A model generated the notes under the pieces. It had not been told where the DNA came from, did no database searches, and was given only the letters and a program-made list of their open reading frames with translations. Below, in pieces: positions 828 to 1,055 of a stretch of 10,089 nucleotides of DNA (positions are counted from its first letter, which is position 1; the number at the start of each line of letters is the position of its first letter). The position numbers and the translations under genes were made by a program. Origin of the DNA: a virus (taxonomy: Duplodnaviria > Heunggongvirae > Uroviricota > Caudoviricetes); IMG/VR virus record IMGVR_UViG_2675903357_000009; one strand, given 5' to 3'.

Positions 828-1055
828 AACAGCCCCTCCGGAGAGGGGCTGGAGAGTGGCGCTATGTGCCATTGCATGGTGCCGGGTGCCTCCCGGTGAA
901 TTCAGTACCAGCACCTGAATCCGCGATTATCCCATATACCTACTCGCTGATTGCCCCTCCGCACAGGGGGATTCACCATGCCAGTTTCTTTTAACAAACT
1001 CCCCGCAAACCAGACAACAGTCAACCGCCTGAATTGTGAAGTATTTAAAAATTTC
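828..1055. repeat. Conserved ~225-bp element R, copy 1 (near-identical to 3841-4065)
   Basis: Direct comparison with 3841-4065 shows only a few mismatches, while the flanks on both sides are unrelated. Begins with the hairpin AGCCCCTC-CGGA-GAGGGGCT. No convincing ORF on either strand. Confidence 0.8.
831..850 (-). terminator. Intrinsic-terminator-like hairpin at the downstream end of R (for minus-strand transcription)
   Basis: Perfect 8-bp stem with 4-nt loop at 831-850, followed on the minus strand by the U-rich tract GUUUAUAUUGAUUUUG (811-830). Confidence 0.5.

Follow-up and report, generated by a model that had tools for sequence, protein, structure and literature searches.

Several small RNAs (sRNAs) have been described from the late regions of lambdoid prophages. 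In at least eight prophages of the Sakai strain, the cargo slot that lies 3' of PR' holds pairs of Hfq-binding sRNAs, and the pair that follows the Shiga-toxin (Stx) gene stx2B consists of EcOnc27 on the sense strand and AsxR on the antisense strand (Tree et al. 2014, PMC4104026; reviewed in PMC7873438). EcOnc27 is the same RNA as sRNA103, which when overexpressed increased the transcripts of fimZ and espA, an effect that is probably indirect (PMC5030294, PMC12711010). STnc100, a gammaproteobacterial sRNA first listed in Salmonella, has 11 annotated copies in Escherichia coli O157:H7 EDL933, where RNA sequencing (RNA-seq) found 11 copies transcribed and one of them (STnc100_4) was confirmed by Northern blot (Neuhaus et al., PMC5331693). 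In enteropathogenic E. coli (EPEC), PasD1 and PasD2 are abundant and Hfq-dependent, with the seed UGUGAG placed just 5' of the terminator (PMC8550237), and PasD and STnc100 have been concluded to share an ancestor (Zhu, Shabalina and Storz, bioRxiv 10.64898/2026.05.13.724894). No function is assigned to the STnc100 family in these reports (PMC4104026, PMC7873438, PMC5030294, PMC12711010, PMC5331693, PMC8550237, bioRxiv 10.64898/2026.05.13.724894). Here we compare with these systems a repeated element, R, found in a 10,089-nucleotide stretch of viral DNA (Caudoviricetes; IMG/VR record IMGVR_UViG_2675903357_000009). The whole stretch is called the window, and the two copies of R within it are called copy A and copy B (Table 1).

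R is an already known element: the window carries two copies of the catalogued STnc100 gene and not a new kind of element. The window was scanned against all Rfam families, and because it returned two full-length minus-strand matches to RF02076 (STnc100), both far above the gathering score of 47 bits, R is, with near certainty, a member of this curated sRNA family. Primers published for quantitative PCR of STnc_100, designed for Shiga-toxin-producing E. coli (CATGGTGAATCCCCCTGTGC and GCCTCCCGGTGAATTCAGTA; PMC12370729), match R exactly. The original prediction, which was made from the letters of the window, had named a phage-encoded small RNA among its possibilities and had placed R in the direction of late transcription. 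Both proposals are borne out by the two full-length matches, which lie on the late-transcription strand, and documented relatives of R (EcOnc27 and PasD) are Hfq-bound. A third STnc100 match at 3604-3792 (21.8 bits, E=0.23) overlaps the end of an IS600 copy and was taken as chance.

The two copies form a near-identical repeat in dissimilar surroundings, as had first been noticed. Global alignment of 828-1055 with 3840-4065 gives 215 identical columns out of 228 (94.3%), against 44% (left) and 46% (right) in the 228-nt flanks, and the edges are abrupt at both ends. Identity reaches 97.1% over 831-1040, with no difference at all between 880 and 1009, and a repeat finder paired 846-1064 with 3856-4074 at 94% identity. 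The G+C content of R is 53%, as compared with 34% and 42% in the flanks. R is far more conserved than the sequence around it, and the suggestion that its conservation might be no higher than that of the flanks does not apply.

The RNA that runs from G981 to 819 folds at -69.5 kcal/mol (z=-2.95 against shuffles) and reproduces the Rfam consensus fold. Its first 108 nt make up a 5' domain in which a closing helix of 8 bp, P1, surrounds four hairpins, P2 to P5. We aligned 34 members of the family from E. coli, Stx1 and Stx2 phages, EPEC (PasD1), Shigella, Salmonella, Klebsiella, Enterobacter, Pantoea, Superficieibacter and Trabulsiella. Their consensus fold recovers P1-P5 with 24 pairs, 16 of which show compensatory changes, and the covariation spans about ten enterobacterial genera. 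Paired cells amount to 97.2%, versus 43-48% when the partners are slid by 1-3 columns, and on no measure were the observed values reached by any of 500 shuffles. Since the sequence of P5 served as the search pattern by which the loci outside E. coli were retrieved, the invariance of P5 arises by construction; the choice of pattern has no bearing on the covariation of P1, P2 and P4 or on the near-invariant nucleotides of the junction. Apart from the search motif, little or no variation is seen at the junction nucleotides and in the P2 loop (GAAU, GCGG, CGCGG) among Escherichia, Salmonella, Klebsiella, Enterobacter, Pantoea, Superficieibacter and Trabulsiella, whereas the 3' region varies freely. 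Within the 5' domain, copies A and B differ at a single position (879/3889), where a G-C pair of P1 becomes G.U, so that the pair is kept in copy B. The full 5' domain is present in 87 of the 120 loci retrieved.

After P1, the fold of copy A continues with a short hairpin of 4 bp, the single strand CACUCUCC and the terminator. The terminator (851 to 830 on the minus strand) has a 9-bp stem and a 4-nt loop and is followed by UUUAUAUUGA, an interrupted U tract. The hairpin with a U-rich tract that the original prediction had placed at the late end of R is therefore real in copy A; its U tract is interrupted, and in copy B the stem lacks one base (AGCCC-UCUCC...) and keeps only 6 pairs around a 7-nt loop. 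Measured against the criterion for an Hfq module, a terminator with about six or more U, copy A offers its 9-bp stem with UUUAUAUUGAUUUUG and copy B the weakened stem with UUUCUGUG; tails of U7-U8 are present in many other members of the family. E. coli ATCC 11775 has an ortholog whose flanks are those of copy B, and relative to it two changes are private to copy B, namely the pairing-neutral change in P1 and the 1-nt deletion in the terminator, which is absent from that ortholog. The same deletion would also appear if a homopolymer had been misread in sequencing (CCC for CCCC). Downstream of copy B, everything beyond about 190 nt has been removed by IS600.

Transcription of R probably starts near G981 in copy A and near G3991 in copy B, by homology to PasD. 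The 5' ends of PasD1/2 in published RNA-seq data (NC_011601 1060260 and 741157; PMC8550237, supplementary table) align exactly with G981, the first base of P1. Upstream of this end PasD has TTGACT, 17 nt and TTAAAA, and R has TTGTCT and TGtTAAAAG at the same offset. These elements are identical in copies A and B, the one substitution (4020) falling in the spacer. Among 107 distinct family members, TTGNC begins 37-43 nt upstream of GGTGAAT in 36 (control window, 3), and 55 have a -10-like hexamer (A2, T6) 14-21 nt upstream (control window, 27). The Rfam model starts at 1010, which is 29 nt upstream of G981; by our reading, its first ~29 positions would be the promoter -10 and the discriminator and not part of the RNA. 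In a lysogen, where antitermination is absent, copy B must start within R because a terminator with U8 separates it from the tRNA genes. The sigma-54 element GG-N10-GC, an idea taken from a Salmonella ChIP-exo paper, was not seen in R by eye, and no formal test was made. The hexamers TTGACT and TTGACA were considered as the -35 of R and rejected, as they lie 47 nt upstream of GGTGAAT and the family norm is 38-41 nt.

We therefore favour the view that R is a self-contained prophage sRNA gene of the STnc100 family that works along the lines set out here, and give this statement as a whole a probability of about 0.8; the individual mechanistic steps are held with less assurance, somewhat above even odds. 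R sits in the cargo ('moron') slot between the Q antiterminator and tRNA genes on one side and the lysis genes on the other. The analysis itself shows this position, the family membership, the covarying fold, the terminator, the modularity and the lack of a conserved reading frame; the transcription start, the Hfq dependence, the base pairing in trans and the seed are inferred. In the lysogen, host RNA polymerase would start at a weak, non-canonical promoter (-35 TTGTCT, extended -10 TGtTAAAAG) within R and yield a product of about 160 nt, lengthened to at most about 190 nt if the start is that of the Rfam model. Nucleotides 1-108 would form a closed junction of four hairpins; this would bury the 5' end and stabilize the RNA, and possibly do more. 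In the last ~50 nt the short hairpin would be followed by CACUCUCC, a single strand rich in C and U, and by the intrinsic terminator. Hfq binding and target pairing are likely to fall to this 3' module, the pairing through the C/U-rich strand beside the terminator as in PasD, and CACUCUCC is the candidate seed of R. By analogy with the relatives, R probably depends on Hfq and acts in trans by base pairing. During lytic growth, Q-modified polymerase would read through the terminator, and R would therefore join the late transcript.

Several points weigh against this account. A sigma-70 scan called no promoter for R, in keeping with the original remark that it contains a TTGACA with no good -10, although the perfect hexamer occurs in copy B only (4034-4029, minus strand) and copy A has TTGACT (1024-1019). 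In the candidate -10 the conserved final T is missing, and the hexamer that would make a good -35 (TTGACT/TTGACA) stands 7 nt too far upstream. Neither copy has an unbroken U tract (copy A, UUUAUAUU; copy B, UUUCUGUG), a feature ill suited to a 3' end that is to bind Hfq. Copy B, with its private terminator deletion, may be decaying. The evidence for expression and Hfq binding comes from relatives and not from the exact variant in the window. Finally, a simple base-pairing sRNA leaves the very strong conservation of the 5' junction, unpaired nucleotides included, unexplained.

The STnc100 family is found in 2860 of 5426 complete E. coli genomes, at up to 12-13 places in each, and it occurs across Enterobacterales; 285 phage records also contain it, most of them from Stx phages. 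Its slot in lambdoid prophages separates the Q/tRNA genes from the lysis genes, and the neighbours in this slot differ among E. coli, EPEC, O157 and Stx1/Stx2 phages. In converting phages the family directly follows stx1B and stx2B (the model starts 75 nt past the stop codon of stx2B) at 154-208 bits; in other prophages it follows tRNAs or DUF3927. Recurrence beside such unrelated neighbours (tRNAs, a DUF3927 gene, stx1B/stx2B) agrees with the earlier description of R as a discrete module. The parts of the gene also appear in different combinations. Over the 45 nt that were compared downstream of P1, R agrees without exception with the Stx1-phage and Oslovirus copies in the first 42 (short hairpin, CUCUCC and terminator), and yet the 5' domains of these copies share only about 71% identity with that of R. 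Conversely, the 5' domain in Stx2 phage II reads as that of the Oslovirus copy, while its 3' module is 53% identical to that of R, versus 96% for Oslovirus.

Comparison of loci L005, L007 and L006 with window positions 830-873 indicates that 5' domains and 3' seed-plus-terminator modules recombine independently: identical 3' modules stand beside 5' domains of about 71% identity, and the reverse joining also occurs. Tandem arrays of 2-4 copies, 220-580 nt apart, were observed as well, in which each copy has its own promoter-like region and a different 3' part. In Enterobacter, isrI matches are interspersed among the copies, and the arrays have a Q-like gene on one side and holin/lysozyme genes on the other.

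Such conservation and shuffling raise the question of whether the 5' four-hairpin junction might itself be the functional part, either by binding or titrating a protein or other factor or by scaffolding a factor to targets chosen by the 3' module. We consider this unlikely. The near-invariance of the junction nucleotides and the P2 loop across genera while the 3' region varies, the independent recombination of the two parts and the tandem arrays of 2-4 copies all speak for it, but it has no known partner and no consistently linked gene, given that DUF3927 precedes copy A and PasD and is missing upstream of copy B and of the Stx-phage copies, and a stable 5' domain could merely shield the RNA from nucleases. 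A broader form of the idea, to which we would give slightly less credence still, is that STnc100/PasD constitutes a modular RNA platform of lambdoid phages in which a covarying 5' junction of four hairpins, near-invariant across at least 10 genera, is combined with exchangeable 3' seed-plus-terminator modules. If this were true, the junction would be a handle for a partner (a protein, or an RNase-resistance or sorting function), the 3' module would program the target, and the STnc100/PasD family would exceed an ordinary Hfq sRNA.

An sRNA gene also has to be distinguished from a cis-acting element of the late operon with no role as a free RNA, be it a leader, a processing or stability element, or a terminator/insulator that closes off tRNAs, stx or DUF3927. 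R invariably occupies the late strand, borders cargo genes on their 3' side and ends in a terminator, and its own promoter is weak in the window variant; we nevertheless regard the cis explanation as improbable. The late-transcript leader suggested in the original prediction in particular does not fit, as R is not at the start of the late transcript but far downstream of Q (its start is ~1080 nt from the Q stop codon for copy A and ~2030 nt for copy B) and past the tRNA genes, a terminator precedes copy B, and promoter-like elements of its own stand at a fixed distance across the family. Moreover, uninduced cultures of EDL933 and EPEC contain copies as abundant discrete RNAs (PMC5331693, PMC8550237), an insulator would have little reason to be arrayed in tandem, and a covarying 108-nt junction is needless for a plain terminator. 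Sharp edges of similarity, differing cargo on either side and module shuffling would suit a mere shared stretch for cargo-swapping recombination among lambdoid phages, a mosaic boundary without a function of its own; this is very improbable, because cross-genus compensatory changes show selection on RNA structure and the RNA is expressed and Hfq-bound in relatives. It is scarcely credible that R encodes a small protein, either from its minus-strand open reading frames (ORFs; 37-40 aa) or from the plus-strand ORF of 42 aa that RefSeq marks. The NCBI annotation pipeline (PGAP) places a pseudogene over R in many genomes, and EDL933 STnc100_10 has a high ribosome-footprint ratio (PMC5331693), but ribosome coverage is low for the other EDL933 copies, the marked ORF has no Pfam match, the longest open frame switches strand and frame among 34 relatives, the indels in the core (1, 4, 10, 14 and 16 nt) are not multiples of three, and substitutions track base pairing and not codons. 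The earlier statement that R has no convincing ORF is thus upheld. Nor is R the 5' part of an annotated gene: the RefSeq 'hypothetical protein' pseudogene lies on the opposite strand, is unsupported as a gene and was set aside as an annotation artefact. In many genomes the pipeline annotates this antisense pseudogene and leaves the sRNA itself unannotated.

The minus strand of the window is the strand of late transcription and carries a Q antiterminator gene (6018-6839), RusA, DUF968, an N6/N4 DNA methylase gene, a second Q gene truncated at its 5' end (2062-2463; Pfam) and five tRNA genes. Copy B follows three tRNA genes and then a strong terminator. In uninterrupted relatives the order is Q, (methylase), the tRNAs ileZ-argN-argO, (DUF3927), R, (iraM or else a sialate-esterase gene, whole or as a remnant), holin, lysozyme and Rz. 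The tRNAs called Met(CAT) by ARAGORN are tRNA-Ile of the ileZ type in RefSeq. Near copy A the tRNA cluster has two genes, a layout also seen in an ST131 strain; the interval 1784-1883 (minus strand) keeps both ends of a tRNA-Arg(TCG) of the argN type with no foldable gene and, compared with 4187-4263 beside copy B, looks like a degraded tRNA. An ORF of 117 aa (1243-1596, minus strand) lies in an AT-rich region between the tRNAs and DUF3927; neither Pfam nor NCBIfam gives a match for it, and it is unannotated in the homologous ST131 locus. Forty nucleotides downstream of each Q gene there is a terminator-like hairpin with a U run (2003-2022, minus strand, and within 5905-6023), in a 119-nt repeat of 96% identity, and the hairpin at 2022-2003 is a better candidate than the terminator of R for the tR' of a late leader.

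Copies or ends of IS600 (1-72, ~2515-3655 and 10018-10089; 99.5% to annotated IS600) separate and bracket the two late regions. Two of them, in direct repeat, enclose 73-2514 with copy A, iraM, DUF3927, two tRNAs and the 5'-truncated Q; the third is inverted at the end of the window, and about 110 bp at the left end of the middle copy itself seem to be missing. This exact arrangement has no counterpart among the 5426 complete E. coli genomes, where the best match reaches 85% coverage at 95%; this points to a Shigella-like genome rich in insertion sequences. Elsewhere in the window, a hok/sok type I toxin-antitoxin locus occupies 8853-9178 on the minus strand (Rfam sok, 112 bits, 9003-9178); a Hok-family ORF (8853-9065) overlaps the sok match, with an NCBIfam score below the cut-off, and a weak isrK match lies downstream (8763-8844, minus strand; 25.7 bits against a gathering score of 50).

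Table 1. Features of R, its neighbours and related loci; positions are those of the window unless loci are named.
Feature	Position	Strand	Details
R copy A, whole conserved block (promoter-like region, sRNA and terminator)	828-1055	-	94-97% identical to copy B, flanks ~45%
R copy B, whole conserved block	3840-4065	-	Same comparison; ATCC 11775 ortholog with the same flanks 98% identical
RF02076 STnc100 match, copy A	821-1010	-	132.4 bits, E=1e-29, model 1-206 of 206
RF02076 STnc100 match, copy B	3831-4020	-	123.6 bits, E=2e-27, full length
Putative promoter, copy A	988-1017	-	-35 TTGTCT 1017-1012, 18-nt spacer, TGtTAAAAG 996-988; predicted start ~G981
Putative promoter, copy B	3998-4027	-	Same elements, offset +3010; predicted start ~G3991
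5' structured domain, copy A	874-981	-	P1 (GCAUGGUG/CACCAUGC) closing four hairpins P2-P5; minimum free energy fold equals Rfam consensus
5' structured domain, copy B	3884-3991	-	Same fold as copy A
3' module, copy A	830-873	-	Short hairpin UGGC/GCCA, single-stranded CACUCUCC (candidate seed), terminator stem 851-830
3' module, copy B	3842-3883	-	Weakened terminator (1-nt deletion in stem, 3860-3842)
Intrinsic terminator between tRNA-Arg (argO type) and copy B	4065-4082	-	7-bp stem and U8
DUF3927 gene directly upstream of copy A	1076-1207	-	PF13064, 95.6 bits; same neighbour as PasD1/PasD2
iraM-like gene convergent with copy A	460-795	+	NCBIfam NF007393, 162 bits; RefSeq annotation of identical loci
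RefSeq partial 'hypothetical protein' pseudogenes antisense to the sRNA	L002 5080-5205, L003 5061-5186, L004 3797-3922, L132 3599-3724		
Tandem-array loci	L042, L047, L051, L053, L054, L075, L082, L085, L088, L113		Pantoea, Enterobacter, Superficieibacter, Trabulsiella, others

The family is widespread, being present in about half of complete E. coli genomes and standing directly after Shiga-toxin genes. Sequence variants of the STnc100 copy in Stx2a phages have been reported as the strongest genomic predictors of haemolytic uraemic syndrome (HUS), and the predictive variants after stx2B are a T deletion near +103 and a single-nucleotide polymorphism near +90 (PMC12711010). By our reading, these positions (L005 ~3044-3058; +89 to +103) map to the extended -10 and the stretch from -10 to the start of the Stx2-phage copy, and the T deletion is visible in a phage with an Stx2c backbone (L008). 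If the promoter has been placed correctly, the HUS variants could alter the expression of the sRNA and not its sequence. What the window adds is a clean example of two STnc100 copies flanked by differing cargo, of which one appears to be decaying. Such interest as is left concerns the deeply conserved 5' domain.

Compared with the STnc100 model itself, R shares the full model, the consensus fold and the prophage location; its P3 hairpin is short, and nothing excludes membership. The short leader RNAs lambda 6S and StxS are, like R, small RNAs from a lambdoid late region in the lysogen, but they run from PR', right after Q, to tR', whereas R lies beyond tRNAs and has its own promoter-like region. 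IpeX, from the cryptic prophage DLP12 of K-12, is an sRNA of similar size in the interval between Q and the lysis genes. It does not belong to the STnc100 family, because the DLP12 interval (K-12 570000-580000) gives no STnc100 match at the gathering threshold. AsxR and AgvB (RF02703, RF02702) occupy the same lambdoid cargo slot as convergent partners of STnc100-type RNAs (PMC4104026), but they are 51-60 nt long, lie on the opposite strand and are unrelated to R in sequence. A convergent anti-sRNA partner beside R was considered and rejected, as neither model has a match in the window at E<=1, although in the positive control, Stx2 phage II, an STnc100 match (3030-3235, plus strand) abuts AsxR (3237-3289, minus strand; 88 bits).

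EcOnc27/sRNA103 (Tree et al. 2014; Gruber & Sperandio 2015) shares with R the family, the late strand, the slot and the upstream block TCACAATTCAG..GTTGAC, and its copy in Stx2 phage II scores 208 bits to STnc100. It differs in that its 5' domain is about 71% identical to that of R and its 3' module is a different one (53%); moreover, it is paired with a convergent AsxR, which the window copies lack, and the upstream cargo of R is tRNAs or DUF3927 and not stx. The other close relatives are PasD1 and PasD2 of EPEC E2348/69, homologues of EcOnc13 that were found by Hfq RIL-seq (ligation and sequencing of interacting RNAs) and measure 172-173 nt. Their P1, P2 and P4 are homologous to those of R, the spacing from promoter to P1 is equal, and they occupy the slot after DUF3927 and before holin/esterase genes, as R does (DUF3927 for copy A only). 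The PasD seed just 5' of the terminator is in the place equivalent to that of the candidate seed of R. The PasD seed UGUGAG, the PasD terminator and the Northern-probe sequence are each absent from R, whose core is about 58% identical to PasD, with a diverged P5 and an unrelated 3' module. Judged by these sequence comparisons, R is a sister of PasD, and not itself a PasD.

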